A stretch of DNA of 20,000 nucleotides from an uncultured virus (IMG/VR IMGVR_UViG_3300030372_005500). Lineage: Duplodnaviria; Heunggongvirae; Uroviricota; Caudoviricetes. The stretch lies in IMG/VR virus record IMGVR_UViG_3300030372_005500. One strand, written 5' to 3'. Positions within the stretch are counted from its first letter, which is position 1; each line of letters starts with the position of its first letter. Under the pieces are notes generated by a model. It did no database searches, was not told where the DNA came from, and was given only the letters and a program-made list of their open reading frames with translations. Below, in pieces: positions 1 to 20,000 of the stretch. A program made the position numbers and the translations under genes.

Positions 1-2
1 GC

Positions 3-2567
3 TCCAATGGTAAAAACCTCGAAGCAGTATTCCAATCATCGGCCAATATGTATTGTCCTGAGGGTAATTTCCCAATAATACAATCAGAATCTATACCAGT
101 ACATTCCACACAGACATTACAATTACCAACAGAATACGATACAAGCCTAACATCAACAAGTTGGGACCGTACATATCATAGAGTAAATTCATTTATCTAT
201 CCAAATCAACCTTATCTATTTGTATTTCTTTTAGAATTAGAAGAATCAAATCCAATTATATCATGGACTGCAGAAGATGCAAATGGCCCAGGACAAGAGA
301 CATTCATTAGATATGGAGAATATAATTTTAGCAATCCATTTAATGATGATGGGCAATTAAATTACTTAAGAAATCCACATACTCACAATTCAAATACAGA
401 AAGAGTGCCTTTAGACTCAGGAACTTCATTTGTTTTCACACAAGGTCAATCACAAGACATGGCAGGTTATCGCTTTCATGCAGATAATACAACAGTTTCG
501 TTTATGAAAGAACTTCCAGAGGCAGTATCTCATAGTCCAGGAGCAGATGGCAAATTTGATTGGTATGATGGAGACCCTGCAGTTAATGATGATGAATTGG
601 ATTTCGTATCATTGTATATGCCCTTTATTAATCATGAAAGAAAAGATATTACTATAGAATACATGGCCTTGGCTTATGAACTTCAAGATGATGGAGATGT
701 ATTTTTGAAGCAGTGGATGAATGCCTCAAGAATGGGTTGTTTCAATGACACAAGACCTCAAGGTACTGGTTTTTCAAGTTCTTCAGCAAACTGGGATAAT
801 ATGTGTGAAGATCCATTAGATACGGAAGATTATTATGGAATGAGTGAAATGTTAGATGCGAAACACAATTATTATTATTCTGGATTCTGGTATTTAGGAT
901 ATCCTGACGAAGGGCTTAGTATTCGGCCAATGGATGGCTCCACAGGCACAGCTCTTGAAGGTTTTAGTTGTGCATATAGTGACCTTGTTAATTGGGGTAC
1001 AAATTGCCGTAGTGATGATTTTCAAAGAAGAGCAGGAGTTCTAAATGATGAAACTACAAATCCAGAATATTTTAGAAAACAACATACAGATTATTTCTTG
1101 CATACTTCTGAATTAATACCTGAAAATGGGACAACACACATATTATATTTATTTAAATTTGCAGGAACTCACCATTGGCAATCAAATATTGAAGATGTAT
1201 GTTTTTATTGTGATGCTCAAAATCCATTCACTCCTGCAGAATTCACTTCAAGTGCAAACGAAGCAGGTACGATTCAAGAAATGAACCGAATAACTTCTTT
1301 CAATAAGGACCGAGATTCAGATGGTGACGGTAGAACTGATACCGATTGCTTGCAATATTCATGCCAGCAGAATACAACAGACATAACTTTATTGATACAA
1401 AAACCGTCTTCTAAAACTGGAGAAAGAGAATTACCGTTGCCTATCTGGGGTGTAGGGCCAAATATGACTTGCATAAGTCGGTCAACTTTTAATTTTAATG
1501 GGGTTGACCCTGGAACTATATCGTCGGATAATGTAACAACTTGTCCAGGCACCTTTTCTGCACCAATTAATGGATGGGCTAAGTATCAAGAAGTACATGA
1601 TAGGGTTGATGGCTACCGAATAGATGGAGCAAGAAATGAATTGATTGTATCAAGTGCAGATTGGTTTAATCCGTTAGGAATTTGGTGCACAAATGATAGA
1701 ATTCAATTAGGTTTTGGCGCAATAAATGGATACGGATGGAACACTGCAAAACCATGTGTTACTGATGATAGTTTGCAAGGGTGGTCAAATGCCGATAACA
1801 AAGGTGAAGATAGGGCGAGAGGAGTTTATGAGATCAATGGAAGAAGTGCTACATACACAAGCATACATGACTATGAGTTTCATTCAACAGAATTAATGGC
1901 TTCAGCATCACTTACAAGCGGTAGGTGGACTGAAGTAAAAGGAACATCAACTGGTTTTGATTATTTAGACAATACATTTAGGCATAAGATAGTTGAAAGG
2001 AACATTTATGAACTTACGATAGTCACATCTAATTATGATGTACCTGAATGTCCAGTAGGCACTACTGAAGTGGATGGTCTTAATTGTGCAGATTCAGGAG
2101 ATGTAGCACTAAGAAGTGTAATATCAGATACAGTGAATGTATTGAAAGATGTAGGACATTCTTGTAATCCCGTAAGTGTTAACTCTCAAGCGGCTTATTG
2201 GGATGTTACATATGATATGGACTGGGACAAATGTGGTAGTTCAATAAAAGATGCTATAGCAGGAGTAGCCCAATATGATTGGGGTACTTTTGTAGAAGGG
2301 GCGCAAGCACTGTATGGAAATATAGAAGATGCAATAGGAAAGGCTTGGGAGCAAATTAAAGGGCTTGGAGAATGGTTTGCTCGTGTTGCAGTAGATGCAA
2401 TGGGCATAATAACAAGTTTATTCCATGAGATAGGAGCCCATATGGATGAAATCGTTACGGGATTCTTATATCTTGCAGGATTACTTGGACTTTCATTCTT
2501 TTTACAGATGATAGTAAGATTTGGTGCAACAATATTAATTTCTATTGAAAGAAGAGGTGCAGCATAA
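3..2567 (+). CDS. Large acidic, Cys-rich surface protein with C-terminal membrane anchor (putative virion adhesin/spike); probably 5'-truncated by the window
   Basis: Frame is open from base 3 to the ATG at 48, so the true start is probably upstream. Many N-x-S/T sequons; C-terminal amphipathic helices then hydrophobic GFLYLAGLLGLSFFLQMIVRFGATILI and a short basic tail. Shares motifs with 2635..5442. Confidence 0.7.
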   Translation, partial: SNGKNLEAVFQSSANMYCPEGNFPIIQSESIPVHSTQTLQLPTEYDTSLTSTSWDRTYHRVNSFIYPNQPYLFVFLLELEESNPIISWTAEDANGPGQETFIRYGEYNFSNPFNDDGQLNYLRNPHTHNSNTERVPLDSGTSFVFTQGQSQDMAGYRFHADNTTVSFMKELPEAVSHSPGADGKFDWYDGDPAVNDDELDFVSLYMPFINHERKDITIEYMALAYELQDDGDVFLKQWMNASRMGCFNDTRPQGTGFSSSSANWDNMCEDPLDTEDYYGMSEMLDAKHNYYYSGFWYLGYPDEGLSIRPMDGSTGTALEGFSCAYSDLVNWGTNCRSDDFQRRAGVLNDETTNPEYFRKQHTDYFLHTSELIPENGTTHILYLFKFAGTHHWQSNIEDVCFYCDAQNPFTPAEFTSSANEAGTIQEMNRITSFNKDRDSDGDGRTDTDCLQYSCQQNTTDITLLIQKPSSKTGERELPLPIWGVGPNMTCISRSTFNFNGVDPGTISSDNVTTCPGTFSAPINGWAKYQEVHDRVDGYRIDGARNELIVSSADWFNPLGIWCTNDRIQLGFGAINGYGWNTAKPCVTDDSLQGWSNADNKGEDRARGVYEINGRSATYTSIHDYEFHSTELMASASLTSGRWTEVKGTSTGFDYLDNTFRHKIVERNIYELTIVTSNYDVPECPVGTTEVDGLNCADSGDVALRSVISDTVNVLKDVGHSCNPVSVNSQAAYWDVTYDMDWDKCGSSIKDAIAGVAQYDWGTFVEGAQALYGNIEDAIGKAWEQIKGLGEWFARVAVDAMGIITSLFHEIGAHMDEIVTGFLYLAGLLGLSFFLQMIVRFGATILISIERRGAA

Positions 2568-2587
2568 TGTTTGAAAGACTAAAAATG

Positions 2588-2628
2588 TTTTTATATCTTT
2601 TAGAATCATATAGGGAGCACAAAGGAGA
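2588..2628 (+). promoter_or_regulatory. Archaeal-type TATA box and RBS for 2635..5442
   Basis: TTTTTATAT at 2588-2596 preceded by an A-rich tract; AAGGAGA at 2622-2628 just before ATG 2635. Confidence 0.45.
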
Positions 2629-2634
2629 TTTAGA

Positions 2635-5442
2635 ATGAGAGCAATATTCGTATTCATAGTATTAATGGTAAACATAGCATCACCTGCAATGGCAGATGAA
2701 GATAGTATTTTTGAAGGTAGTAAACCAATTAACATTGAACGAGTTCTTGAAGTATCTGAAGACTTATTAGTTGCTAATGCAACGGAGAATGTAAATCTAA
2801 TTAATGTAGGCGATACAGCAAATATAACACGAAATATAGAGACTTGGACTGATTTTAAAAATACAACAGGTGAAGACGGAGCTTATGTCGGTGCACCGTT
2901 TGAAGAGAATATACTTAGAGTAAATGATTCAGGTGCGGTAATCGTATCAGGGTTACTCAGAGCTCCATCGGATGCAATCATGTCAGGAGCTTCAGAAGGA
3001 TGGCTCAGGATACCTTTGAATCTTAATATTAATGAAACATACAAGAAGTGTGCATTGACTTTTAATGAAGATTACCAAACGCCACCTCTACCAGAGAATC
3101 CTTGGCAGGCATGTTCACCTAATTTAGATATAAGAATGCAGATCTACCACATAGGAAATCCTAATTCTTATAATTTGACTGCAGATGGATATCCAAGCCT
3201 ATGTTGTAAATGGGGTTCTGATTATAATCCTGGTTGGAGCGATATGGAATTATTTGATTCATATTTTGACCATTCAATAGAGCCTTTAGCACATCCAACT
3301 AAAGTATGGGACAAAGTATATCGTCACTCCCATAAAGACCAGAAATGTTCTCCAGAATTTTTTATGCCATGGGCACCACCTGGACTTGAAAGTGTAATGC
3401 CACAAGAGATAGCAGATTATTATGGTGCTACAAATCCTATGATACCTGGAGGATGTAGAGATGCAACAGATAACTCAATTCCTCTTACAGGAGACCTAAT
3501 AAGAAGAGATATAGACAATAGAACTTATCTTTGGTGGTCATTCCCATGGTATCCTGATGAACACTATGCCTATATAATAGAAACTAATAACTCAATGATA
3601 TTTCCTGAGGTATATTGGACAACTGCAGACCTTGGTGATGATGGGATAAGTAAGAGTTATTTGAAATTAGAAGATAATATGCATTATAGTTTGAAAGAAG
3701 AATGGGCATCACTATCACCAGCGACTTGTGGTGTTTCAGGTTACTTTAAAACAGATTGCGATGATAATTTGGTTTACAATAATTATACACTTCCAGTAGA
3801 CCTCGGAACTTCTGTATTATTTACAGAAGGCCATGGTTATGGTGTAAGAGGCTTTAACATTACTGATACTGCTACAACATACAATAATCTTGGTTATGGA
3901 CAGAATACACAATGGGAATATAGAACACCTCTTGATGGAATAATGTTCTATGACAGGTTAGATAGAGCATTTGATAATACTAAAGATAGATTAACATTCA
4001 CTATGCCCTTTTCATTACCAGATGTTACAAACACTAACACAACTGATTTTGAAGAGCGAGCAATAGTAACTACTTGCGTACAAGGATTAGATGATTCTTT
4101 AATGCCAATAGATGACGAGAGCTGGACATGCAATCAGCAGGTTGCAACAGACCATGTAATCATAAGTGGAAGAGATACGGACGTAGATACGGCTTCAAAC
4201 ATACTATATGCTCAGAATACATGGGGTTCTGGTATTTGTTATGATCATACAAGTGCAGTTCCTGCAGTACCTAATTGTGATGAATATGGAGATTATGGTA
4301 TATGGACTTCAAGTGGTGGTGGTTTTGAAGATACTGCATTTACTCCAGGGCGACAAGATGGAGATGAAAATCTACACGGAGCTACTTATCTAAAATACTG
4401 GATGTCTTTTGAATTTTATGACCCTCCAACTATAGATGGAGGAGGTTTAGTAGATATGAGTCCTCAATGTCAATATTCAGTTGATTTCTATACTATTTCA
4501 TGTAGAGGAGATGGAACCCGAATCTGGTTACATGACTTTGCAGGTGAAGAGATGGATGAAGATTCTCAATTAATGAATTCAATGTGGGTATTCCAGGGCG
4601 GCAATTTAACTAATGCTCACAGCACACAAGAAGCTGAAGAGGGTTATTTTGACCATAGACACTTTAGACAAGTAGGAAGTCCATTCCCTCTTTATACTGA
4701 ATCTTATACATATGCAAATAATATATCTATGTGGAATAATTCAATTAATCTTAAGCATTATAATTGGAGACCTTTCCATACTACAGAAATATCAGAAGGA
4801 ACATTAGCTAACATAAATCCAGTCCAAGTAGGTCAAATATTTGAATATCATGTTAAAGTAATACATGAGGGTGTAGAATATACGAACTGTGAAGCCTATG
4901 AAGTAGTTCAAGGAATAAAGGAAGGTAATGTAATGTTAGATAGTTATTCTTTCCAGGGTTCTGGCATGCCTCTTGAATTTGCAGAGGATGGCTTTTGTGA
5001 CGGTAAAAGTTTCAAGGAAGTATATAATTTCGTTCAACAGACTACTGAACAATGTAGGGCGTTAAATCCGAGTGGAAATGGTAAAGGTGGTTTCTGTGAA
5101 GCAGGAATGTTAAATTGGCAGACAAGAGAGCTAATAGAATTACCAGGCTTAATTAGTCAGGAAGTTAATTTAGCATTTATGTTGGAGATTTTGGCCTTCA
5201 TAGTAAATAGAATAGAAGAGAACCTAAATTCTGTTGGTCAACTTATATTGTTCCTTCTCCCATTTTCAATATTCATAGTAGGTATTGCAATAATATGGCA
5301 TGCTACCAGGATGTTAACTTTGATGATAAGAGGTGAATTAGATATGGCCTTAGAGCTTACTGACCTTGATAGGTTCGGTATTGCAGGTATAACAAAGGCC
5401 TTTACCAATTTAGATTATCTGCGGAGGAGGCCGAAAGAGTAA
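2635..5442 (+). CDS. 935-aa exported, Cys-rich glycoprotein with signal peptide and C-terminal TM helices (putative adhesin/spike)
   Basis: Signal peptide MRAIFVFIVLMVNIASPAMA with AxA cleavage site; more than ten N-x-S/T sequons; C-terminal hydrophobic segments (LILFLLPFSIFIVGIAIIW) and basic tail RRRPKE. Confidence 0.75.
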   Translation: MRAIFVFIVLMVNIASPAMADEDSIFEGSKPINIERVLEVSEDLLVANATENVNLINVGDTANITRNIETWTDFKNTTGEDGAYVGAPFEENILRVNDSGAVIVSGLLRAPSDAIMSGASEGWLRIPLNLNINETYKKCALTFNEDYQTPPLPENPWQACSPNLDIRMQIYHIGNPNSYNLTADGYPSLCCKWGSDYNPGWSDMELFDSYFDHSIEPLAHPTKVWDKVYRHSHKDQKCSPEFFMPWAPPGLESVMPQEIADYYGATNPMIPGGCRDATDNSIPLTGDLIRRDIDNRTYLWWSFPWYPDEHYAYIIETNNSMIFPEVYWTTADLGDDGISKSYLKLEDNMHYSLKEEWASLSPATCGVSGYFKTDCDDNLVYNNYTLPVDLGTSVLFTEGHGYGVRGFNITDTATTYNNLGYGQNTQWEYRTPLDGIMFYDRLDRAFDNTKDRLTFTMPFSLPDVTNTNTTDFEERAIVTTCVQGLDDSLMPIDDESWTCNQQVATDHVIISGRDTDVDTASNILYAQNTWGSGICYDHTSAVPAVPNCDEYGDYGIWTSSGGGFEDTAFTPGRQDGDENLHGATYLKYWMSFEFYDPPTIDGGGLVDMSPQCQYSVDFYTISCRGDGTRIWLHDFAGEEMDEDSQLMNSMWVFQGGNLTNAHSTQEAEEGYFDHRHFRQVGSPFPLYTESYTYANNISMWNNSINLKHYNWRPFHTTEISEGTLANINPVQVGQIFEYHVKVIHEGVEYTNCEAYEVVQGIKEGNVMLDSYSFQGSGMPLEFAEDGFCDGKSFKEVYNFVQQTTEQCRALNPSGNGKGGFCEAGMLNWQTRELIELPGLISQEVNLAFMLEILAFIVNRIEENLNSVGQLILFLLPFSIFIVGIAIIWHATRMLTLMIRGELDMALELTDLDRFGIAGITKAFTNLDYLRRRPKE

Positions 5443-5939
5443 TGGTAAAGATAGATAAGCCAATAAAGGAGAATTATCCGAATGTCTTTGAAGCATTCGA
5501 TTATATGGAATTAGGGTTTTGGGTTCTTACAGTAATAACTATAGTAACTTTAGCCAGTATATTATTTAAATTCTTATCAAGTTATGGAATAGATGATAGT
5601 AGAGATCTACTACACCCTGGTCTACGTTTTGGTCCAGGACATTTTGCACATCGAGTGGTTTTAGTTATATTGTACCTACTTAGGTTTTTAGGTGTAATAA
5701 TAGTCATAACTGAGTTTGTAGAAGGTTTTGACTTTAATTTATTCATGGAAATGAATTATTGGGATTTCTTTGTTTTAGGGCTGTTACCAGCATTTTTCTG
5801 GTTCGGCTTTTTCTTGGTTCTTAGCGAATGGTTTAAGTTCCAGTGGATGGGTTCAGTACAGAGGTGGGAAGAATATATTGAGGCCTATACCTTGGAATTA
5901 CCTGAGCCTGACTACGAAGAAGAATATTACGAAGAATAA
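5442..5939 (+). CDS. Integral membrane protein (about 3 TM) with acidic C-tail
   Basis: Three hydrophobic stretches; TAATG overlap with the upstream gene; GGAGG upstream. Confidence 0.7.
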   Translation: MVKIDKPIKENYPNVFEAFDYMELGFWVLTVITIVTLASILFKFLSSYGIDDSRDLLHPGLRFGPGHFAHRVVLVILYLLRFLGVIIVITEFVEGFDFNLFMEMNYWDFFVLGLLPAFFWFGFFLVLSEWFKFQWMGSVQRWEEYIEAYTLELPEPDYEEEYYEE

Positions 5940-5956
5940 AATAGGAAGAAACGACA

Positions 5957-6712
5957 ATGGCAGACAGCATAATGACGGAGGAACTCTTCACTCTATTATT
6001 AATTGGGATGGTAGGATTCTACTTTCTCAGTTTAGTAATAAAGAACGCATACGGTTTGGCGTTCCTCAGAACCAGCAACCAAAGACAGAAATCTTTGAAG
6101 GTAATAGACCCACATGCATTACAGCGTGTAAAACACGACATAATACAATCATGTAAGGCGTCTTTACCAAGAGGACCAGCCAAACTATGGCTAACAGGCA
6201 GTAGACACGTCTCAAGGGTGTTTCTGGGGCATATAGAGGGCATTAACGAAACAAACTCAATAAGGTGGTTTGTTGTAAAGCCAAAAAAGGTTAGTATCTT
6301 TTCTTTTTCTATACCTCTTTCATATTCCAGAGTTATAGCCGTTCACAAAGATTATTGTTCACACCCTACAAGTCCAGATATATTTATTAGAGCCACAAGT
6401 ATCAATCTTCATGCAGACGCTTTCTGGGTTCCATCATATATTGATGATTATGAAGAGCCAATTGACACTCAAAGACTTCTTGAAATGTGGGATGAATTAA
6501 TAATGGATTGGAAAGTATGGATGCTAAGATTCCAGCATATAGTCCAGACTGATCTCGGACCTCGTTTATTGGTAAGAGCTATGAATCCAAGTATAGCAGA
6601 CAGGGCCAAGGAAATATACCCTGGAGGTCCAGTAAGAGAAATAGAAGTTAATGAACAAACAGGAGGCAAATATACTGAGCCTCCTAAAAACCCAAGGGGG
6701 CCTATGCAATGA
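5957..6712 (+). CDS. N-terminally membrane-anchored protein, unknown function
   Basis: 251-aa ORF with a single N-terminal TM (LFTLLLIGMVGFYFLSLVI); ATGA overlap with the next gene. Confidence 0.7.
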   Translation: MADSIMTEELFTLLLIGMVGFYFLSLVIKNAYGLAFLRTSNQRQKSLKVIDPHALQRVKHDIIQSCKASLPRGPAKLWLTGSRHVSRVFLGHIEGINETNSIRWFVVKPKKVSIFSFSIPLSYSRVIAVHKDYCSHPTSPDIFIRATSINLHADAFWVPSYIDDYEEPIDTQRLLEMWDELIMDWKVWMLRFQHIVQTDLGPRLLVRAMNPSIADRAKEIYPGGPVREIEVNEQTGGKYTEPPKNPRGPMQ

Positions 6713-9410: not shown

Positions 9411-9434
9411 CGGGAAATCAAAAAGCGGAAAACG

Positions 9435-9447: not shown

Positions 9448-9486
9448 AGAAGACACACACACCTTCATTTCCACTGGAAAAAGATT

Positions 9487-10580: not shown

Positions 10581-10593
10581 GTACTGTATATTA

Positions 10594-12020: not shown

Positions 12021-12089
12021 GTAAAAAACAGAAATGGGCTGAAGAGATTATTTTAAATCTCGTTGACCTATTCAATTCAAAGAGTAAAG

Positions 12090-12632: not shown

Positions 12633-12659
12633 CAATCTGTTCACAATTGTTACTATCGA
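12629..12659. repeat. Left copy of a 31-bp inverted repeat containing the dyad GTAACAAT-N9-ATTGTTAC
   Basis: GTAACAATCTGTTCACAATTGTTACTATCGA; its reverse complement matches 15610-15640 at 28/31 positions. Confidence 0.85.
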
Positions 12660-12685
12660 GGAGAAAATATTTTTAGCATTTTTGC

Positions 12686-13252
12686 TTATTTGTTACCACC
12701 GTCGGAGTGGGTAACAGTTGTTCTCGAAATTCCGAAAAACGTAGAAATTATTTTTGGAAGGTACCAAAGAATGATAAAAGCAATAACTCTGTAAAGCACA
12801 TAAGTAAAACTAAACCAATCAGCGGAACATGCGGATGGATACCAGTGTACAATGCAATTATGCCAAACCAAATATTGAATTATCAGTAAGCCAAGTAAGA
12901 AAACACAAAGAAGTAAGAAAGAAGAGTTGAACATAAGCTGATGTTGAATAGGACCCATGGCTTTAATTTCAGTAATTTGTTTTTCGATATGATCTCTAAT
13001 CTTACTAACAGGGCTCTTAAAAGATATAGAATCGGAAAGTATAGTAATGCCCAAAGCAACACAACTTCCAGAAAAAAGAATAAGATGTAAGTAGGAAGGA
13101 TGTAATAGTCTACTACAATTTCCATAATCGCAACCAGTTTGTTCATGCCAATGTTCTCCATTAAATATAAATCCATAAAGATAAGCTAAGTAGGCAGAAT
13201 ATAATATTACTATGATGAGTAATATATTTCCAAGTTTTTCAGTCTTGCTCAT
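12686..13252 (-). CDS. Four-TM membrane protein with an internal two-fold repeat (TM - Cys/His/Trp loop - TM)
   Basis: Four hydrophobic segments; loops HWHEQTGCDYGNCS and WHNCIVHWYPSACS. Confidence 0.65.
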   Translation of the reverse strand: MSKTEKLGNILLIIVILYSAYLAYLYGFIFNGEHWHEQTGCDYGNCSRLLHPSYLHLILFSGSCVALGITILSDSISFKSPVSKIRDHIEKQITEIKAMGPIQHQLMFNSSFLLLCVFLLGLLIIQYLVWHNCIVHWYPSACSADWFSFTYVLYRVIAFIILWYLPKIISTFFGISRTTVTHSDGGNK

Positions 13253-13616
13253 CAGGTAACCTTAGTCTGTTCCTTAGTTTATCTTGAACTAATCTATCAA
13301 CTTCAGCACTACCTTTGCCATTACGTTGTATTATTGCTGTCTTATAAGCCAAAGCAATCATTTTACTGCGTTGTTCTTTAAAGCCTTTCAAAACCCTAAA
13401 CTTTGCAAGTTTCCTAATGTCGCTATCAGTTATCTTTTTCTTTTTGATATCTTTTCTTTTCTTCCTGGTAATTATTCTATATTCTTCTTCAACCCATTCA
13501 TCAATAGATTTCAATCTAACTTCATCAATAACTCTTTTGCATTCATCCCAAAGTATGTGGTCAAATTTCTCACCACCTTTTCGATAAGGTTTAAAATCAA
13601 ATTTTTTACCAATCAA
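13239..13616 (-). CDS. Basic Lys/Arg-rich hypothetical protein
   Basis: 125-aa ORF, TTG start with GGTGAG upstream; overlaps the downstream gene. Confidence 0.6.
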   Translation of the reverse strand: MIGKKFDFKPYRKGGEKFDHILWDECKRVIDEVRLKSIDEWVEEEYRIITRKKRKDIKKKKITDSDIRKLAKFRVLKGFKEQRSKMIALAYKTAIIQRNGKGSAEVDRLVQDKLRNRLRLPDEQD

Positions 13617-13618
13617 AA

Positions 13619-13729
13619 TTACTCACCGTAATTCCTTTGATATTCTTCTTCTCTACATTCTTCACATATTTCATCATCAAAGATACACATATGTTGATTA
13701 CATCTCGTACATTTTCTATATTTTCTCAT
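13619..13729 (-). CDS. 36-aa CxxC..CxxC zinc-finger microprotein (not in ORF track)
   Basis: MRKYRKCTRCNQHMCIFDDEICEECREEEYQRNYGE; GGAGA RBS upstream. Confidence 0.6.
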   Translation of the reverse strand: MRKYRKCTRCNQHMCIFDDEICEECREEEYQRNYGE

Positions 13730-13747
13730 TTCATATCTCCATTTTAA

Positions 13748-13849
13748 TTATTGACACTTCCTACATTTCCAAACTATCTCATTTGAAATCAAAAGCGGAT
13801 TTAATGTAATACCAACTCCTGAACGTTTACAAATAGAACAATTAATCAT
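13748..13849 (-). CDS. 33-aa CxxC..CxxC zinc-finger microprotein (not in ORF track)
   Basis: MINCSICKRSGVGITLNPLLISNEIVWKCRKCQ; overlaps the upstream stop. Confidence 0.55.
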   Translation of the reverse strand: MINCSICKRSGVGITLNPLLISNEIVWKCRKCQ

Positions 13850-13973
13850 TAGACATCCATTTATGCCCTTCTCTGCAATTAAAAAAGATAGTAGGGGTCT
13901 TATCTCTATCTTTCATCTCTAAAGTTCTATACAACCAAGGACAGCTACATGTAGGGCATGTAGATCTACTCAA
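13842..13973 (-). CDS. 43-aa TFS/TFIIS C-terminal-like zinc ribbon (not in ORF track)
   Basis: TTG start; MSRSTCPTCSCPWLYRTLEMKDRDKTPTIFFNCREGHKWMSND aligns by eye to the TFS consensus CPxC...Y...QTRxADEPxTxFYxCxxCGHxW. Confidence 0.6.
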   Translation of the reverse strand: MSRSTCPTCSCPWLYRTLEMKDRDKTPTIFFNCREGHKWMSND

Positions 13974-14094
13974 AGACAACTACCCCACATTCAGTACATA
14001 GCCACCCTTCAGGGTTATGCTTCTTTCCTTGTGCACCTCTTCTGGTGTACATACGTCTCATTGCTATTCCACAGTTACAAGTTGGTTTTTTCAT
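13966..14094 (-). CDS. 42-aa zinc-ribbon microprotein (not in ORF track)
   Basis: MKKPTCNCGIAMRRMYTRRGAQGKKHNPEGWLCTECGVVVFE. Confidence 0.6.
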   Translation of the reverse strand: MKKPTCNCGIAMRRMYTRRGAQGKKHNPEGWLCTECGVVVFE

Positions 14095-14098
14095 GTTT

Positions 14099-14326
14099 TC
14101 ATCTCAAATATTCTTCTTGAATTATATTGATATTATGGTCGGCCTCTCTGGCCATTGTTTCTATTTTCTCATGGATTCTCCAGAAGTCAAGTTCAGCATC
14201 CTGGTCTTCCCATCTTAATACTTCATCTAAATGTATTCTATTTGCCTTAGTAAAGTTACGAACAATATGAATGAAAGCCCGTACCTGGTCAAGCTCAGGC
14301 ATTATAGAGGGATTGTATTCTTTCAA
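14099..14326 (-). CDS. Hypothetical helical protein
   Basis: 75-aa ORF, TTG start overlapping the nuclease stop. Confidence 0.55.
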   Translation of the reverse strand: MKEYNPSIMPELDQVRAFIHIVRNFTKANRIHLDEVLRWEDQDAELDFWRIHEKIETMAREADHNINIIQEEYLR

Positions 14327-15246
14327 GCTAACGCCCCCATGTAATCATATTCCTCAACATCATTTACCAAAGGAACATCAGATATTCTAATAGGTCCATC
14401 CTTTCCATATTTGTACATTGAACAAGCTTCCTTATAGTCACAGAATGAGCAGTTATATCCGTATTTGGGTGTAAAGATATCATTAGTTACTGCGTGAGTA
14501 AACTCTTTGCACAATTGCTCAAGGTATTCTGAATCAGCCTCATATCTCTCAGTCTTGTAGACTTTGCCAGATCTAAGATGATAATATAGTAAATCATCAA
14601 GAGGTTCACCATATAACTCATCAAAAGCAATAGAATAGATAGTAAACTGAGGATTATTATTCAATACATGAGCCTTGCCTTCTGGAGGATGTTTGTCTGT
14701 CTTATAATCTAAAACAATATTCTTACCGTCTTTAGTCTTATCTATTCTATCAATCACTCCAAGAAGGGGATATCCTCTCCAGTTAAATCTAAATCGCTTT
14801 TCAAGGCCAATTGGCTTCTCATCGTTAACATGTCTATCATAAAATTCACCCAGTATTCTTTCACCTAATTTCTTCATTGAGAAATACTCCAGGTGTGGTT
14901 TCTTTAGATACCATTTAATGTGAGATGCTAAAGTAACATTAACAACATCACCATTAGCTAACTGATAGGGATATATTTTGAATTCAGCATTATCAAGCTG
15001 TTTTCCTTTTAGTAATTCTCCAGAACACTGCAGACGCCATCTATACTTAAATGAATTAACAAAGCTCTCCCTGCTCTTATAGTTCCTCTTGTAAAACATC
15101 TCTACCATGTAGTGGATCTCTTTTCCAAAAGCTAATTGAGGAGAAATAGGAGGTTTCTCTTTAACAACATAATTAAGATAATATTTGAACGGACATGACT
15201 GATAAACAGATAACTTTGTAGCTGAAATGTGATTAATCTTCGCCAC
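14323..15246 (-). CDS. Cas4/AddB-like PD-(D/E)xK exonuclease with Fe-S staple
   Basis: SATKLSVYQSCP (Cys1), GKEIH, EKRF, GVIDRID, VLDYKT, QFTIY, and C-terminal CSFCDYKEAC. Confidence 0.85.
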   Translation of the reverse strand: MAKINHISATKLSVYQSCPFKYYLNYVVKEKPPISPQLAFGKEIHYMVEMFYKRNYKSRESFVNSFKYRWRLQCSGELLKGKQLDNAEFKIYPYQLANGDVVNVTLASHIKWYLKKPHLEYFSMKKLGERILGEFYDRHVNDEKPIGLEKRFRFNWRGYPLLGVIDRIDKTKDGKNIVLDYKTDKHPPEGKAHVLNNNPQFTIYSIAFDELYGEPLDDLLYYHLRSGKVYKTERYEADSEYLEQLCKEFTHAVTNDIFTPKYGYNCSFCDYKEACSMYKYGKDGPIRISDVPLVNDVEEYDYMGALA

Positions 15247-15448
15247 GTTTATACATTCCTTTATGGTGTCTGTATCTCTTTAATCCATCTACACAAGCAA
15301 GATAGCAATTGTTACATAGATATCCTACAGGTATGTAGTCAGTTCCTTTCTGACCTTGTTTCACCAATATAGAAACTTTTCCTTTAATAGCTTCTTTGAT
15401 AGTTCCATCAACTTCACGACAGTGGTCGCATATACTTATTTTAGGCAT
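15233..15448 (-). CDS. 71-aa zinc-finger protein
   Basis: CDHC...PVGYLCNNC; ATG 15448 preferred over the track's 15466 start because a TATA-like TTAAATAA lies about 22-30 nt upstream. Confidence 0.6.
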   Translation of the reverse strand: MPKISICDHCREVDGTIKEAIKGKVSILVKQGQKGTDYIPVGYLCNNCYLACVDGLKRYRHHKGMYKRGED

Positions 15449-15572
15449 AGTGGAAAGTATAGGCACCCTTATTTAAGAATAGTGTAGGCACCTGTATTCA
15501 CGCATACGCATAATAGAATAATCAAAGAGTATTTGCAACAACTGTTACCGAGAAAAGTGCCTTTAGAGGATG

Positions 15573-15587
15573 GTAACACTTATATAA
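15573..15587 (+). promoter_or_regulatory. GTAACA box abutting a TATA box, upstream of the recombinase operon
   Basis: GTAACAC-TTATATAA; same arrangement as GTAACAA-TTATATAT at 18068-18082. Confidence 0.5.
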
Positions 15588-15609
15588 TCCCACCGTCTGA
15601 GAGCTATCG

Positions 15610-15640
15610 TCGATAGTAACAATTGAGTATAGATTGTTAC
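15610..15640. repeat. Right copy of the 31-bp inverted repeat
   Basis: TCGATAGTAACAATTGAGTATAGATTGTTAC versus reverse complement of 12629-12659 TCGATAGTAACAATTGTGAACAGATTGTTAC. Confidence 0.85.
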
Positions 15641-15650
15641 CGATAAAAAC

Positions 15651-15875
15651 ATGGGACGCAAACTAATAACAGGATATACAGTTGAAAGGAACAAGGAATG
15701 GTACCTTGCAATAAAAAAGCAAAAGAGCAGATGTGCAAGGTGTGATGGGTCTCTCAACAGTAGTATCAAGGTCAAACAGAAGAAAAGTTGGCTTGTTGAT
15801 AAGAAGGCATATTGTGGAACATGTTCAAGAATAATAAAGGATGGAAAGAAAAATGAACAGGAAGAGAGCAACTAA
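15651..15875 (+). CDS. Basic CxxC..CxxC zinc-finger protein
   Basis: CARC...YCGTC in a 74-aa Lys-rich ORF. Confidence 0.65.
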   Translation: MGRKLITGYTVERNKEWYLAIKKQKSRCARCDGSLNSSIKVKQKKSWLVDKKAYCGTCSRIIKDGKKNEQEESN

Positions 15876-16011
15876 GGTACCCTACGAAGGATATACATTA
15901 CCACCTTCTTCAGAGAAAGGTGGGAAGTTTGTAGACTTCAAAAGGATAATAGAAAGGAAAGCAGTAAAGAAGATACGAGTAAAGAAGGAGAGAAACAATG
16001 ATAAAGCTTGA
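15853..16011 (+). CDS. 52-aa basic peptide (not in ORF track)
   Basis: MNRKRATKVPYEGYTLPPSSEKGGKFVDFKRIIERKAVKKIRVKKERNNDKA; overlaps both neighbours. Confidence 0.45.
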   Translation: MNRKRATKVPYEGYTLPPSSEKGGKFVDFKRIIERKAVKKIRVKKERNNDKA

Positions 16012-16135
16012 TAACATAGATAGAATAATTACAGAGATCAAAGAGAAGGAAGCTCCAGACCATATTACCTGGAGGATGGAATTAGATAATGAAATAAAGG
16101 AGAAGTTACATGCCAAAAGAACCCCTTACAATTAA
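15998..16135 (+). CDS. 45-aa peptide directly upstream of the recombinase (not in ORF track)
   Basis: MIKLDNIDRIITEIKEKEAPDHITWRMELDNEIKEKLHAKRTPYN; AAGGAG RBS. Confidence 0.5.
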   Translation: MIKLDNIDRIITEIKEKEAPDHITWRMELDNEIKEKLHAKRTPYN

Positions 16136-16679
16136 AGAACAAGATACATTATTGAAAGCTGCAGAGAAATATGGAGACTATCAACGTTGGGAAGGAAGTG
16201 AGGACAAGCTTGACACATACAAAGCTATAGCTTTCATGTTAGATACAGCATGCCATCCTTCAGTGTTGTCCGACGAGAAACATCAACTAAGAACAGTAAA
16301 AGAGAAAGGTAAAATCTATATCGAATGGAATAGGCCTAAGAAGAAAGGACATGACGCTTTTACTCGTATCAGGGCAAGTAAAAGGTTAGTCTCCTGGGTG
16401 GAAGAGTTCGTAGCATTAGAGAAGCCAGGTTATAGGCAATTTTACAATCATATGTTAAGGGCAGTAGCAGAAACAATAACAGATCCATCACGAGGATTAA
16501 CAAGAGAGAATCTATCACCTTTGGCAATAAGACATACCTTTGCAGTTAACATGTTAGATAGAGGAGTAGATGCTGAAGCAGTAAGACAGATGATGAACTG
16601 CAGTAGAAAGACATTAGAATTTTATTCAAAATACAGGAGGGATATGTTGGAGTCTAAGTTAGACGACATCGACTGGTAG
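16110..16679 (+). CDS. Catalytic-domain-only tyrosine recombinase with deviant active-site motifs
   Basis: PLTIKEQDTLL start of the catalytic domain; box I MLDTACHPSVL; PKKKG loop; box II SPLAIRHTFAVNMLDRGVDAEAVRQMMNCS..TLEFY; AAGGAG RBS. Confidence 0.85.
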   Translation: MPKEPLTIKEQDTLLKAAEKYGDYQRWEGSEDKLDTYKAIAFMLDTACHPSVLSDEKHQLRTVKEKGKIYIEWNRPKKKGHDAFTRIRASKRLVSWVEEFVALEKPGYRQFYNHMLRAVAETITDPSRGLTRENLSPLAIRHTFAVNMLDRGVDAEAVRQMMNCSRKTLEFYSKYRRDMLESKLDDIDW

Positions 16680-17060
16680 TGCGTAGAAGACACATGCAAG
16701 GTAAGCAACACCAGTACACTTTGTGTGGGCATCAAACAACCTCTGGAGAGTGGGCAAGGATGCTAAGGGATGCCAACAAAATTAACTGTAAAAGATGCTT
16801 AATGGTACAGAAAAGAATAGATCAGAAGAAGAATAAGAAGAAGTAGTTTGGTTAACAGTATATCCATTCATGATGCAGCTATAGTAGTCTCAAAATATAT
16901 ACCGTTTATATAGGCATATCAGAACAACATCAGACTATAGTCTAACATATACTGTTGCCCTACAGATAAATCCTAAGATCAATACATAAAAACACTGTTT
17001 ATCCTCTATAAACCCTCCAAAATACCAATGATTTAGATGGTTATTGTTTAATTTTACTCG

Positions 17061-17204
17061 TATATATATTTATATTTATGGGGGTATACGTATTCATAAA
17101 GTAATATATATACTAAACGTATTGGTGTAAGGGGTCCATGCGGTTATATATACTACATTAGACAGTTATATATCTAACCTGCCACGGCAGGAAAACACGG
17201 AGGA
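17061..17204 (+). promoter_or_regulatory. Cluster of TATA-like boxes, short hairpin and RBS upstream of the coat-like genes
   Basis: TATATATA-type tracts at about 17061, 17104, 17144 and 17166; CCTGCC-AC-GGCAGG dyad at 17178-17191; GGAGGA at 17199-17204. Confidence 0.55.
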
Positions 17205-17211
17205 AAAAAGC

Positions 17212-17388
17212 ATGAAATCTTTGAACCGAACCGCAGTCGCTGTTGGCACAACAGTCGGCTCTGTAAGTTCAGCATTTGCTTCAGACACAACTGACGCAAT
17301 CACTGACTTGCTACCTACTATTGTAGAATTAGCTGTAGTCATTGCATTGTTAGGAATGGTCGTAAGCATGTTGAAGAAGATGAACTAA
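17212..17388 (+). CDS. Inovirus pVIII-like coat protein paralog 1 (58 aa; not in ORF track)
   Basis: MKSLNRTAVAVGTTVGSVSSAFA|SDTTDAITDLLPTIVELAVVIALLGMVVSMLKKMN: signal peptide, acidic N-terminus, one TM, basic C-terminus. Confidence 0.75.
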   Translation: MKSLNRTAVAVGTTVGSVSSAFASDTTDAITDLLPTIVELAVVIALLGMVVSMLKKMN

Positions 17389-17401
17389 GCTTAATTGAAA
17401 T

Positions 17402-17581
17402 ATGAATTTCAATAAAGTAGCAGTAACATCTGGAGCAATCTTGGGATCTGCCCAAAGCGCATTTGCAAGCGTAGGTAACGCAACTACAGCTATAACGGAT
17501 TTACTTCCAGTTATAATTGAGTTGGCTATTGTTATAGCACTATTAGGTGTTGTAATGGGCTTGCTAAAGAAGATGAATTAA
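17402..17581 (+). CDS. Coat-like paralog 2 (59 aa; not in ORF track)
   Basis: MNFNKVAVTSGAILGSAQSAFA|SVGNATTAITDLLPVIIELAIVIALLGVVMGLLKKMN. Confidence 0.75.
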   Translation: MNFNKVAVTSGAILGSAQSAFASVGNATTAITDLLPVIIELAIVIALLGVVMGLLKKMN

Positions 17582-17593
17582 GGATATCCTTAA

Positions 17594-17767
17594 ATGAACT
17601 TCAAAAAAGTAGCGCTTAGTGCAGGAGCAACCTTAGGAGCTGTATCAAACGCAGCAGCATCAAACCTATCTGATTCAGTAACAGAATTAGTACCAATTAT
17701 TGTAGAATTAGCAGTAGTTGTCGTACTATTGACTTACGTATTAAGTGTGGTTAAGAAACTAAATTAA
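17594..17767 (+). CDS. Coat-like paralog 3 (57 aa; not in ORF track)
   Basis: MNFKKVALSAGATLGAVSNAAA|SNLSDSVTELVPIIVELAVVVVLLTYVLSVVKKLN. Confidence 0.75.
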   Translation: MNFKKVALSAGATLGAVSNAAASNLSDSVTELVPIIVELAVVVVLLTYVLSVVKKLN

Positions 17768-17776
17768 GGAGTTATT

Positions 17777-17947
17777 ATGTACAACAAAATAGCAACCTCA
17801 GTTGGTTTGACCTTAGGTGCAACATCCAACGCAATGGCAGGTAATTCTACCGACGCAATTTTGGAAATATTTCCAGTAATTGTAGAGTTAGTTATTATCA
17901 TAGCTATGCTTGGATGGATCATGAAGTTATTGAAAGGCCTAAATTAA
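17777..17947 (+). CDS. Coat-like paralog 4 (56 aa; not in ORF track)
   Basis: MYNKIATSVGLTLGATSNAMA|GNSTDAILEIFPVIVELVIIIAMLGWIMKLLKGLN; AAGGAG RBS. Confidence 0.75.
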   Translation: MYNKIATSVGLTLGATSNAMAGNSTDAILEIFPVIVELVIIIAMLGWIMKLLKGLN

Positions 17948-18022
17948 GGCGTTTTAATTAACCTCAGCTTCGCATATTTCGCCCCCCTATCGAGGAAACT
18001 CATCGGCATTTATTGCTGGGCG

Positions 18023-18072
18023 GTTACTCGGCAAAGGTAAGGTGTCACTCCCTTACCTTTCGCCCCTGTAAC
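18023..18072. other. Long stem-loop downstream of the coat-like genes (terminator, RNA stabiliser or packaging signal)
   Basis: Perfect 10-bp stem AAAGGTAAGG (18033-18042) / CCTTACCTTT (18051-18060) with an 8-nt loop, extendable by GGC/GCC and GTTAC/GTAAC. Confidence 0.65.
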
Positions 18073-18107
18073 AATTATATATGCATCCCCAATAAGGTAA
18101 CTAAAAG

Positions 18108-18254
18108 ATGACAAAAAACTCTAACAGAATCAAAACATTTCGAATCGTCGAGAAATCTAACGTTAGTGTGGACAATCCTACTTCTTTTGGCCCTTCAAAA
18201 ATTAAGATTACTATTCCGAAAGGAACTCAATTAAAAGTTAAGGAGGTCAAGTAA
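18108..18254 (+). CDS. 48-aa basic peptide (not in ORF track)
   Basis: MTKNSNRIKTFRIVEKSNVSVDNPTSFGPSKIKITIPKGTQLKVKEVK; TATA box about 27-33 nt upstream; TAATG overlap with 18254. Confidence 0.55.
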   Translation: MTKNSNRIKTFRIVEKSNVSVDNPTSFGPSKIKITIPKGTQLKVKEVK

Positions 18255-19633
18255 TGGCCGCCCAAGTATATAGAGCAAGACAATTCAAGAACGGAAAAGG
18301 ATTTGCAGTAACTACAGCTACGACTAAAGATGGCAAGGCTGATTTTACTAAAGCATTTTTTCTGAAAAACGAAGGTGAAGCTAAACAGAAATATGGAAAC
18401 CAGAAAAATAATTTTAACATAGGTAGTGCATTTGTAAGTCAAAATCCAAATTTATTCCAAGGCAAAAAAAGAAGTAATTTATCAAATCAATTAGGTGGCG
18501 GTAAAGGAAACAGATCTAACTCTGGAGCTGATTTTAAAGGTAAGTCAGGAAAGCCACAACAAAAGTTAGCCAAGCCTTTGCCGAAGCCCAGAGATGTAAG
18601 GGGAGTTCCTAATACAAGCTCCGAGATTGCTGTAAGAAGAATAGCAACAGGAGATTTTGAAGATAAACAAGTTGGAAGAGCATTCCAGAAATGGGCAGGT
18701 GTAAAAAAGATGAAGGATGGAGAATATGACTTCCAAAGAGATGACAAAACGATGGGTAAGGTTTACAATGATTATATTACAGTAAAAACTGCAGCTTCTA
18801 ATTCAACACAATATCTAAAGAATAATGACCCAGAAGCTGCCTTAGAGGAATATACAGATGCAAGCCTTGCAGCAAGCAGATTACCTAAAGAAATAAGAAA
18901 TATTAAGTCAGTTGGAGGAGGCACTTTCTTTGGAAAAGGATATGTAGGAACTATAGAAAAGAATTTCAAGAGTGCAAGTAACCAAGCTGGATATGGCGCT
19001 GCAGATAAAGCATACAAGACAGGTTGGTTCGGTAGGCCAAGTATTGCAGCTAAAATAGAACAATCAAATCTTGAGGCTATGGAAATACAAGCTAAGGCAG
19101 ATAAAGAATCTGCAAAGGCATTGTTAGAAGAAGGTAAAGAAAGGTCTTCGAGGTCTAAATCAGTTAGACTTGCTGAAATAGAGGCTGAGAAAAGAGCAAG
19201 TGCTTCTTTCTTGAATAAGATAACTGGCGGATTAGTAGGTAGAGATTCATTAGCTACATTAAGAGTTAAATCAGAAAGGGCAGAAGCAGAGGCAGCACTT
19301 AAAACAGCAAAACAAGAAGGAGCTGCTGCAGAAGAATCTGCAAAAGCACAAAGAAAAGCAATTAGCGTTCAATCAGGAGCATTCGGAGCCAGGCAAAGAG
19401 CTCAGAAATTAGAAAGCCAAGAATTAGAGAGATTAGAGCAGAGATCTGCAGAAGGCAGGCCCATAACAAAGGCAGACAAAGCCAGGCTTAAGTTTATCAG
19501 AGAATTCGGAGAACAAACGCCTTCATCTTTCGCAAGAGGTGAAAGTCAAGTTAGATCAGTAATAGCGCCTGATGCAGAGACAATCCAGGCAGCAAAAGAC
19601 TTTGAGAGAAAAAAGAGAGGTTCTAAGAAATGA
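18254..19633 (+). CDS. 459-aa basic Lys/Ala/Gly-rich protein with coiled-coil C-terminal half
   Basis: Strong AGGAGG RBS; no Cys and no TM; A/E/K/R-rich helical segments. Confidence 0.75.
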   Translation: MAAQVYRARQFKNGKGFAVTTATTKDGKADFTKAFFLKNEGEAKQKYGNQKNNFNIGSAFVSQNPNLFQGKKRSNLSNQLGGGKGNRSNSGADFKGKSGKPQQKLAKPLPKPRDVRGVPNTSSEIAVRRIATGDFEDKQVGRAFQKWAGVKKMKDGEYDFQRDDKTMGKVYNDYITVKTAASNSTQYLKNNDPEAALEEYTDASLAASRLPKEIRNIKSVGGGTFFGKGYVGTIEKNFKSASNQAGYGAADKAYKTGWFGRPSIAAKIEQSNLEAMEIQAKADKESAKALLEEGKERSSRSKSVRLAEIEAEKRASASFLNKITGGLVGRDSLATLRVKSERAEAEAALKTAKQEGAAAEESAKAQRKAISVQSGAFGARQRAQKLESQELERLEQRSAEGRPITKADKARLKFIREFGEQTPSSFARGESQVRSVIAPDAETIQAAKDFERKKRGSKK

Positions 19634-20000
19634 GTGTAAGAAATGAGATAAGGCCTTATACACGCAAGGTATATACTTCTACTCCAAAATCAGGAACAAT
19701 AAGAATCGCTATTAACAGGAACACTCCATTAGAAGATAGAAAAACTTGGCTTGGAAACACAACACCAATAAAATACAAGACAGTTCCAAGATTTAGATTA
19801 AAGAAAGACGGCAGAATTGATGCACACCAGGATACTCCATATGTAGAAAGACCAGGCAGTCCAAAAAATGTAGTATCATTAGATAAGTATGGTAATAGGG
19901 ACTTACAGACAGAAAAAGAATACTTTGGTTATGCAGGAACTTCAGATAGAGATTATCTTAAAGAAACGGCAGGTGCAGCTAAAGGCGCATCAGACAAAGC
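19630..20000 (+). CDS. Basic hypothetical protein, 3'-truncated by the window
   Basis: ATGA overlap at 19630; frame MSVRNEIRPYTRKVYTSTPKSGTIRIAINRNT... stays open to base 20000. Confidence 0.65.
   Translation, partial: MSVRNEIRPYTRKVYTSTPKSGTIRIAINRNTPLEDRKTWLGNTTPIKYKTVPRFRLKKDGRIDAHQDTPYVERPGSPKNVVSLDKYGNRDLQTEKEYFGYAGTSDRDYLKETAGAAKGASDK

Follow-up and report, generated by a model that had tools for sequence, protein, structure and literature searches.

The DNA analysed here, called the window throughout, is a stretch of 20,000 nucleotides (nt) from an uncultured virus (IMG/VR record IMGVR_UViG_3300030372_005500) and maps to a replicon of about 73 kb. In our reading, to which we give an even chance, the window belongs to a so far undescribed lineage of large, non-tailed, non-lytic double-stranded DNA (dsDNA) viruses of marine archaea, with a morphogenesis module of the spindle-virus type and an unusual coat peptide containing a single membrane helix. 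This reading is supported by the homology of a P-loop ATPase, the gene order, the layout of a tandem peptide array, the presence of two giant adhesin-like proteins, and the size of the replicon. An earlier note on the same DNA had suggested an oversized inovirus-like virus of an archaeon. The archaeal and virus-like parts of that suggestion are kept here, and the inovirus-like part is replaced. Together with the left flank taken from a near-identical locus (L001), about 22 kb of the replicon was examined.

The ATPase, a protein of 285 amino acids (aa), carries no hydrophobic or membrane segment. Against Pfam, nothing scored above threshold (nSTAND3, E = 0.003) and Zot was not matched. Its sole significant match in the profile libraries was PHROG 5484 (E = 1.9e-8), annotated "DnaA-like replication initiation protein." A profile built from five close relatives retrieved 1325 proteins at E ≤ 0.001, mostly 250 to 320 aa long. 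When 60 of the 150 listed relatives were scanned for domains, Pfam Zot was found in 11, always at profile positions of about 65 to 156 (the Walker-B part), and a C-terminal helix-turn-helix (HTH) or other DNA-binding-type domain was found in 10. The Zot/pI-like label given to the ATPase earlier is thus borne out in part of the family, while the window protein itself lacks a Pfam Zot match.

Profile-profile comparison (hhalign, 40-sequence profile) aligned the ATPase with those of three cultured spindle-shaped viruses: LSV-48N (98.9% probability, E = 1.4e-17, 232 columns), His1 ORF16 (98.5%, E = 3.8e-15, 243 columns), and SSV1 B251 (93.9%, E = 1.6e-7, 180 columns). These alignments were nearly full-length and included the C-terminal helical domain. 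The alignment with M13 pI was confined to the surroundings of Walker B (79.5%, E = 1.5e-5, 65 columns). Two controls scored far lower: NYM1 ORF19 reached 11% (E = 0.0027, 94 columns), with nothing beyond the P-loop, and HRPV-1 VP8 reached 1.8% (E = 0.028, 60 columns), which sets the protein apart from the VP8-type NTPases of Pleolipoviridae. One family member (P0010) also led directly to the LSV-48N gene by tblastn (E = 3e-9, 90% coverage). LSV-48N is called lemon-shaped in the abstracts of two papers. The earlier caveat that pI-like ATPases also occur in archaeal spindle viruses proved the better lead.

Structure was less discriminating. The AlphaFold model of the ATPase was confident (predicted local distance difference test [pLDDT] score of 88.7). 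Its best named full-length fold match in BFVD was ORF286 of Acidianus two-tailed virus (TM score of 0.54, root mean square deviation of 3.7), followed at lower ranks by Inoviridae Zot proteins and a protein of Acholeplasma phage L2. In a structural search of the PDB, VirB4, AAA+ proteins, Zot, STIV2 B204, and HerA were tied at Z scores of 10 to 11.5, so the fold alone cannot classify the protein. A soluble ATPase of the His1 ORF16/B251 type, free of a membrane domain, is a mark of the spindle-virus assemblage and is what the window encodes. In Inoviridae, by contrast, pI/Zot has a membrane-spanning segment after the P-loop domain. From its sequence, we therefore assign the ATPase to the type found in spindle-shaped archaeal viruses. 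The likeness to Zot is real but distant, as the literature notes for wyrdvirus ATPases.

The gene order around the ATPase is widely kept. The ATPase was found at 66 to 100% identity in twelve metagenome loci (L001 to L012), and the conserved set comprises the C-terminal half of an adhesin, the 165-, 251-, 358-, 100-, and 166-aa proteins, the ATPase, the HTH and SWIM-like proteins, the TFB core, and the nuclease (Table 1). In the window, the order runs from the adhesins through a block of membrane proteins to the ATPase, the TFB core, and the zinc-ribbon proteins. Compared with the adhesin block, the operon of the 100-aa protein, the 166-aa protein, and the ATPase has the opposite orientation in L001 to L008, as it does in the window, but is collinear in L009 to L012. 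In L011 and L012, the adhesin, five genes, and the ATPase follow one another on a single strand. The G+C content of the relatives ranges from 0.35 to 0.48 with the gene order maintained, which suggests hosts of differing base composition.

A comparable arrangement is found in known spindle viruses. LSV-48N encodes its ATPase at the end of an operon of three genes, which diverges from a block that includes two 800- to 900-aa proteins; a short integrase comes next. The window is arranged in the same way. LSV-48N and His1 have full-length homologous ATPases with a C-terminal helical or HTH-type domain, as here. His1 further shares proteins with a signal peptide and a C-terminal anchor as well as many small CxxC proteins. 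Fuselloviridae, represented by SSV1, have the B251-type ATPase, and SSV1 places tandem coat paralogues before a basic DNA-binding protein (VP1, VP3, VP2), an order comparable to that of the window. The wyrdviruses of Asgard archaea, in the portion of the preprint available (bioRxiv 10.1101/2021.07.29.453957), are described with a coat protein, an adhesin, a five-gene block, and a pI-like ATPase that, like B251, has no membrane domain. They have a single coat gene or two paralogues, numerous zinc-finger proteins, and, in WyrdV1, a homologue of TFB. By this description, the order of modules is the same as in the window, and L011 and L012 also agree in having five genes between adhesin and ATPase. 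The same source links wyrdvirus ATPases to pI and to extrusion-type release, and it is this kind of ATPase that upholds the earlier view of the element as virus-like.

Immediately downstream of an AT-rich leader lies an array of four tandem peptides of 56 to 59 aa, which we regard as the candidate major virion protein. Copies 2 to 4 are 46 to 63% identical to copy 1. A TATA-like box is located 46 nt upstream of the first start codon, and GGAGG is located 13 nt upstream of it. By sequence, the four tandem copies with a TATA-like box and Shine-Dalgarno (SD) motifs have a layout predicted to give a high dosage. A profile search with the peptides retrieved 23 proteins at E ≤ 0.01, with lengths of 44 to 104 aa, all from marine assemblies. 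For the alignment, four truncated or fused sequences (P0170, P0175, P0176, and P0178) were excluded, and the four window copies were combined with 19 relatives (n = 23, 55 to 62 aa).

In this alignment, the Ala at position -1 of an AxA-like site was invariant (23/23), and position -3 was mostly small. Shortly after the site, an Asn and an Asp were nearly invariant, and 20 of the 23 peptides carried the sequon N-x-S/T just behind it. The motif PxIxEL was present in all 23 peptides. Invariant residues were one Pro, one Ile, a Glu-Leu pair, and, farther on, a Leu within the hydrophobic segment. Two or three Lys or Arg residues were found among the last eight residues. Mean window hydropathy was weak for the N-terminal segment (about 1.0 to 1.6) and high for the second segment (2.6 to 3.3). 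Thus, the predicted layout of a cleavable signal, one membrane helix, and a basic tail, as in pVIII, holds, and the predicted mature peptide would be about 33 to 36 aa long. The signal peptides of both adhesins likewise end in A-x-A followed by acidic residues. A two-helix hairpin like that of spindle coat proteins was considered for the peptides and set aside, given the weak hydrophobicity of the first segment and its conserved AxA end.

The description of these peptides as pVIII-like in the earlier note is accurate for their layout but does not extend to homology, since the profile comparison with M13 pVIII gave 3.2% and detected none. Matches to coat families were non-significant: phrog_2145 was hit by 3/23 peptides (best E = 0.009), Pfam Phage_coatGP8 by 2/23 (E = 0.084), and Phage_Coat_B by 1/23 (E = 0.72). 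Short hydrophobic proteins such as these give little profile signal either for or against homology to pVIII. By eye, the succession of sequon, D/E-L-L-P, hydrophobic helix, and basic tail can also be seen in helix 2 of His1 VP21 and of SSV1 VP1/VP3; the version shared with VP1 and VP3 reads sequon, L-(L/V)-P, hydrophobic helix, basic tail. We take this as a lead and not as evidence.

A perfect hairpin, AAGGTAAGG ... CCTTACCTT, was noticed by eye in the non-coding DNA 3' of the array, at 18030 to 18065; it may be a terminator or a processing site. The protein encoded directly after the array is 459 aa long, with a net charge of +33. It matches no Pfam or PHROG family and is a candidate DNA-condensing protein.

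Two giant proteins precede the membrane-protein block. The N-terminal part of adhesin 1 was completed from L001, which gave a protein of 1193 aa with a signal-like helix to the left of the window. Its hydrophobic C-terminal helices are predicted to be an anchor. It has an orthologue of 78% identity in L002 and no Pfam family. For adhesin 2, the C-terminal half is conserved in L003 and L008 (31% identity), and neither Pfam nor a PDB-wide sequence search gave a match. Both proteins combine an N-terminal hydrophobic signal with hydrophobic C-terminal helices, in agreement with their earlier description as C-terminally anchored and adhesin-like. Their sequons had been read as an archaeal marker, which was not confirmed: 10 were found against about 13 expected in one and 14 against about 8 in the other, and hence there is no enrichment. 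In the excerpts available for SSV19 (PMC9351363), the 1236-aa tailspike VP4 is anchored by a C-terminal helical bundle, and the structural proteins are N-glycosylated; VP4 thus parallels the window adhesins in size and in its C-terminal helical anchor. Between an adhesin and SSV1 C792, no sequence homology was detected, though the adhesin/block/ATPase layout and synteny match.

Within the block, the 165-aa protein has orthologues in L002, L003, L008, L011, and L012. The 251-aa protein has orthologues of 60 to 98% identity in seven loci in addition to L001, which repeats the window. The 358-aa protein forms 11 clusters, all marine and with no distant relatives; its fold model was poor (pLDDT of 51.6), and ESM Atlas offered no usable match for it. 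PDB sequence searches with the window proteins were uninformative. In one of them, residues 240 to 310 of the 358-aa protein showed a non-significant similarity to an astrovirus capsid (E = 0.11 to 0.28).

The size and topology of the replicon were derived from contigs of four public runs mapped onto the window. The first 3591 bases of one 59,934-bp contig correspond to window positions 16410 to 20000, and its last 3299 bases correspond to positions 1 to 3299. With the 53,044 bases between these ends, the map closes as a circle of 73,044 bp, a closure that rests on one assembled contig, from a run that is perhaps the window's own source, and on the matching sizes of other contigs. The same ATPase or peptides were found on further contigs of 73,064, 73,400, and 74,554 bp, the first of which comes from JGI/IMG. 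L001 lies on a contig of 72,976 bp, which matches window positions 1 to 16171 at 99.9% identity and ends there. Read depth was even across the window. The element is therefore well above the 20 kb assumed as a minimum in the earlier note, and the check for circularity requested there has a positive outcome; a linear genome with terminal redundancy would fit the map as well. The idea that the 73-kb contig was a host chromosome carrying a provirus was rejected, since the contig from the public run completes the circle with even depth.

Assemblies, including the 72,976-bp contig, break at a strain-variable bubble at 15985 to 16439, located partly within the recombinase-like gene and partly directly ahead of it. 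In runs X1 and X2, two alleles coexist there, with 13 differences per 170 nt and 10 per 148 nt. To the left of the window, L001 (16172 to 18415) encodes four more small open reading frames (ORFs) of 133, 60, 103, and 80 aa without a Pfam family, and no recognizable cellular genes appear as the element continues. The window itself is AT-rich (G+C content of 0.32 to 0.43 per kb) and densely coding, with genes on both strands as stated earlier; tRNA and Rfam scans of its 20 kb gave no matches.

Under the virus reading, particle formation may proceed as follows. Abundant expression of the four peptides from a strong promoter would be followed by their insertion into the cell membrane by Sec, cleavage after AxA, and N-glycosylation on a short outer stub, leaving single-helix type-I membrane proteins with the basic tail inside. 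The 459-aa basic protein would condense the DNA. The soluble His1-ORF16/B251-type ATPase may power assembly together with the two other proteins of its operon and the block's three membrane proteins, and the nucleoprotein would be extruded or budded through the peptide-loaded membrane in a presumably non-lytic life style. The two giant acidic proteins, anchored to the particle by their C-terminal helices, would act as fibres or spikes that bind the host. Host transcription may be redirected by the TFB core, HTH, and zinc-ribbon proteins, and the Cas4-like nuclease and the recombinase-like protein may take part in DNA processing. The shape of the particle (spindle, pleomorphic, or rod) cannot be deduced from the sequence.

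The element is marine and archaeal. The stretch or parts of it were found in 20 listed public marine runs from 11 studies, and 4 of these runs contain half or more of the sampled words. The 90%-identity cluster of the ATPase includes a near-identical protein that bears the NCBI name of a "Candidatus Thermoplasmatota archaeon" metagenome-assembled genome (MAG). Together with the TFB core, whose Pfam TFIIB repeat scored 28.3 bits against a cut-off of 23.6, this agrees with the archaeal origin proposed earlier, and the host is probably a marine archaeon of the Thermoplasmatota (Marine Group II/III). The TATA promoters also listed as archaeal signs are borne out only in part, by TATA-like boxes 40 to 51 nt upstream of four operon-leading genes. 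SD-like motifs precede 11 of 29 starts, compared with 8.9% of random positions. The source-given names of three relatives (P0002, P0164, and P0217) contain "0.1-0.22," and those of other relatives contain "0.22-3"; the former may reflect a possible particle association.

No relative of the ATPase was found by tblastn in INPHARED phages. Two ATPase pattern scans of GTDB species genomes also found none, and hence no integrated form. The only peptide match in IMG/VR (L015) was spurious, being a high-GC tape-measure gene. In the literature searched, which included PMC10866085, PMC8491892, and PMC11706807 but not Zhou et al. 2023, Krupovic et al. 2014, or supplements, no spindle-type or other non-tailed virus of Poseidoniales or Thermoplasmatota was found. 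The element is thus undescribed in the collections and literature searched, as the earlier note had supposed for the lineage. Among known marine archaeal viruses, Nipumfusiviridae and Thaspiviridae, the spindle-shaped viruses of Nitrosopumilaceae, share the habitat, giant adhesin-like proteins, and small hydrophobic putative coat proteins, but their coat proteins are 81 to 89 aa long with two helices, their genomes are 27 to 38 kb, and those of thaspivirids are linear.

Several observations weigh against the reading as a spindle-type virus lineage. Its largest weakness is the roughly 51 of 73 kb beyond the examined part, where capsid, terminase, conjugation, or replication genes could change the interpretation; this leaves both a plasmid or vesicle element and a virus with a conventional capsid as serious rivals. 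With 1325 relatives and a core fold tied among several groups, the ATPase family is not proven to be virus-only. The coat is a further difficulty. Spindle coat proteins are recognized by a length of about 73 to 90 aa, a two-helix hairpin, and homology to VP1/VP21, a description from which the peptides depart. His1 VP21 has 73 aa and two hydrophobic helices, whereas the window peptides have one strong helix after a signal-like segment and lack the second strongly hydrophobic helix that defines spindle-virus coat proteins; hhalign gave 0.6% with His1 VP21 and 5.8% with SSV1 VP3. Wyrdvirus coat proteins, according to the same partial source, have about 80 aa and two membrane segments and are recognizably His1-like, and wyrdvirus genomes reach at most about 20 kb, again unlike here. 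The gap in size is also wide: His1 is 14.5 kb and linear, and LSV-48N is 24.9 kb and circular, compared with about 73 kb here. SSV1, which like His1 has about 14 to 15 kb, is about five times smaller than the window element.

Beyond the ATPase, homology to these viruses fades. When the six block proteins, the peptides, and the recombinase-like protein were compared with 29 LSV-48N proteins (its shorter ones), the only matches were that of the ATPase and one confined to a P-loop. Against 14 SSV1 proteins, profile probability did not exceed 3.7% for any of seven proteins from the window, namely, adhesin 2, the recombinase-like protein, and all but one of the six block proteins, and no match was found between the six block proteins, the peptides, or the TFB-like protein and 24 NYM1 ORFs. 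In addition, IMG/VR scans with the ATPase, the peptides, and the 358-aa protein returned no relatives, and the host assignment hangs on one MAG label, that is, on binning evidence only. The hosts of His1 (Halspiviridae) and of the Haloferax virus LSV-48N are halophiles, whereas the window element comes from marine plankton.

Of the other explanations, a large plasmid or vesicle-transferred element, in which the membrane proteins, adhesins, and ATPase serve cell-to-cell transfer by contact or inside membrane vesicles and the peptides are vesicle or pilus-like parts, is unlikely but has to be taken seriously. Plasmid pR1SE of Halorubrum is the model for such an element. A circular map of about 73 kb at even depth, the recombinase-like gene, the absence from IMG/VR scans, and the lack of a recognized capsid family in the 22 kb examined all speak for it, and in core fold the ATPase resembles VirB4, TcpA, and TrwB no less closely than it does viral ATPases. 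It does not account for the full-length match of the ATPase to three cultured spindle-shaped viruses or for a module order that, in the part of the wyrdvirus description available, is that of wyrdviruses. Moreover, tblastn of the ATPase found no match in the 72,556 plasmids of PLSDB, and neither VirB4 nor a relaxase or partition gene was found by Pfam and NCBIfam scans of the examined part, nor a coupling protein by Pfam. Less probable still is a tailed or icosahedral virus with its capsid and packaging genes in the other 51 kb or so. The ATPase would then be a DnaA-like replication protein, as the annotation of PHROG 5484 and the DNA-binding-type domains of 10/60 family members would allow, and the peptides and giant proteins would be accessory membrane proteins with roles in, for instance, lysis or the exclusion of superinfection. 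A length of 73 kb is normal for archaeal tailed viruses, and a circular assembly would also result from a genome with terminal redundancy or circular permutation. The classified Poseidoniales viruses are head-tailed without exception in the accessible portion of the 2025 ICTV summary (PMC12451623). Nevertheless, Pfam scans of the 22 kb and PHROGs scans of the window showed no family of terminase, portal, HK97, or tail proteins, apart from a weak tape-measure match (E = 0.0025, PHROGs) in the helical C-terminus of adhesin 1. Four tandem high-dosage peptides and two membrane-anchored adhesins of about 1000 aa would be unusual for tailed viruses. With tailed-virus hallmark genes, the empty IMG/VR scans would also be unexpected, given that a 73,064-bp JGI/IMG contig exists.

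The reading closest to the earlier note, a giant inovirus-like filamentous virus with the peptides as a pVIII-type coat along the DNA and the ATPase as pI/Zot, is the weakest of all and very improbable. It fails on the architecture of the ATPase and on genome size. Its appeal lies in the peptides, whose signal, short acidic or glycosylated N-terminus, single helix, and two or three basic C-terminal residues reproduce the pVIII layout, and whose scattered coat-family matches, though weak, include phrog_2145 and Phage_coatGP8. The Walker-B alignment with M13 pI, the Zot domains in the ATPase family, and the Inoviridae Zot proteins among the BFVD matches point the same way. Against this, the ATPase is free of membrane segments, its alignments with spindle-virus ATPases are far better and longer, and the peptides are not detectably related to M13 pVIII. 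Inoviridae have small circular single-stranded DNA (ssDNA) genomes of about 5 to 15 kb. The circular map here is roughly ten times inovirus size, and a replicon of 73 kb packed as an extended filament would measure many micrometres. Neither a HUH Rep nor an ssDNA-binding protein was found among the 30 ORFs of the window (Pfam and PHROGs) and five ORFs of the L001 flank (Pfam), the latter being the four left of the window and full-length adhesin 1, while genes of dsDNA elements are present, namely, the Cas4-like nuclease, the recombinase-like gene, and an archaeal transcription factor, TFB.

The remaining genes of the window are mostly regulatory or DNA-processing candidates (Table 1). The 329-aa HTH_23 protein is a candidate regulator or replication protein; in ESM Atlas, it obtained scores of 0.82 or lower, which are leads at best. 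An N-terminal zinc-ribbon motif is absent from the alignment of the 224-aa TFB protein and its three orthologues, which makes it a core-only TFB homologue. The TFB core reported before is confirmed by one Pfam TFIIB repeat above the cut-off. The TFS-like ribbon reported with it was not recovered, as none of the three small CxxC proteins matches Pfam TFIIS/TFS. The recombinase-like protein scored below thresholds (Pfam Phage_integrase, 23.0 bits against 27.1; NCBIfam XerA, 25.8 against 220, E = 6.9e-6) and did not match the SSV1 integrase. A palindrome, GTAACAAT-N9-ATTGTTAC, occurs twice, compared with 0.04 matches expected, and one copy is kept in the divergent relative L008. The copies could be regulator binding sites, terminators, or inversion sites. 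Between the genes of a 125-aa and a 75-aa protein, 106 nt of non-coding DNA (13750 to 13855) are missing in L002, which is 92 to 97% identical.

Table 1. Features of the 20,000-nt window
Feature	Position	Strand	Remarks
Adhesin 1, C-terminal 854 aa of a 1193-aa acidic, Cys-rich protein	1-2567	+	C-terminal hydrophobic helices
Adhesin 2, 935 aa, very acidic, Cys-rich	2635-5442	+	Signal ends AMA/D; hydrophobic helices at residues 839-857 and 870-888
165-aa protein, three hydrophobic helices	5442-5939	+	Opens the conserved block between adhesin and ATPase
251-aa protein, one N-terminal membrane helix	5957-6712	+	Conserved block
358-aa protein, membrane-like helical N-terminal half, conserved C-terminal half	6709-7785	+	Conserved block
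P-loop ATPase, 285 aa	7754-8611	-	Walker A GIPGTGKT, Walker B IILDEAG, helical C-terminal domain
Two small soluble proteins, 166 and 100 aa	8608-9410	-	One operon with ATPase; conserved in all related loci
329-aa protein, N-terminal HTH_23	9591-10580	+	E = 1.1e-6; conserved in L004, L008, L010
143-aa basic protein, weak SWIM-type zinc-finger match	10914-11345	+	17.5 bits (cut-off, 19.6)
TFB/TFIIB cyclin-core protein, 224 aa	11346-12020	+	Pfam TFIIB repeat
Palindrome, two copies	12629-12653, 15616-15640		Borders of minus-strand module 12686-15466
188-aa protein, four hydrophobic helices	12686-13252	-	Hydropathy
Cas4-like PD-(D/E)XK nuclease, C-terminal Cys cluster	14323-15246	-	Pfam E = 1.4e-30; phrog_69 E = 2.2e-29
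77-aa zinc-ribbon protein, CxxC...CxxC	15233-15466	-	Sequence
Small Cys-motif protein, CxxC...CxxC	15651-15875		Sequence
Tyrosine-recombinase-like protein, 189 aa, catalytic-domain part only	16110-16679	+	In strain-variable stretch
Small Cys-motif protein, one Cys/His pair and one CxxC	16679-16846		Sequence
Non-coding leader of peptide array, AT-rich, 365 nt	16847-17211		TATA-like box, GGAGG
Four tandem peptides, 56-59 aa	17212-17388, 17402-17581, 17594-17767, 17777-17947	+	Candidate major virion (coat) protein
459-aa basic protein, low-complexity, helical	18254-19633	+	Directly after peptide array
Start of a further basic protein, running off the window	19630-20000	+	Sequence

A more specific form of the spindle-type virus reading is possible though doubtful: a family of circular dsDNA viruses of about 73 to 75 kb infecting marine planktonic Thermoplasmatota, with a Sec-cleaved, N-glycosylated, pVIII-like coat of about 34 aa with a single helix and with spindle-virus ATPase assembly. 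If true, these would be the first non-tailed viruses of marine planktonic Thermoplasmatota, with genomes three to five times those of their His1-, LSV-48N-, and SSV1-type relatives, and they would stand, as a living intermediate or through convergence, between the extrusion of filamentous phages and the assembly of spindle viruses. If the virus reading holds, no smaller coat protein than the candidate would be known from a large dsDNA virus, and the relationships among spindle, rod, and filamentous capsids would be affected. The absence of the element from the virus collection searched would then indicate a blind spot in surveys of marine viruses. Marine Group II/III archaea rank with the most abundant plankton, and a globally distributed, chronically released virus would call for revised estimates of how these archaea are controlled.

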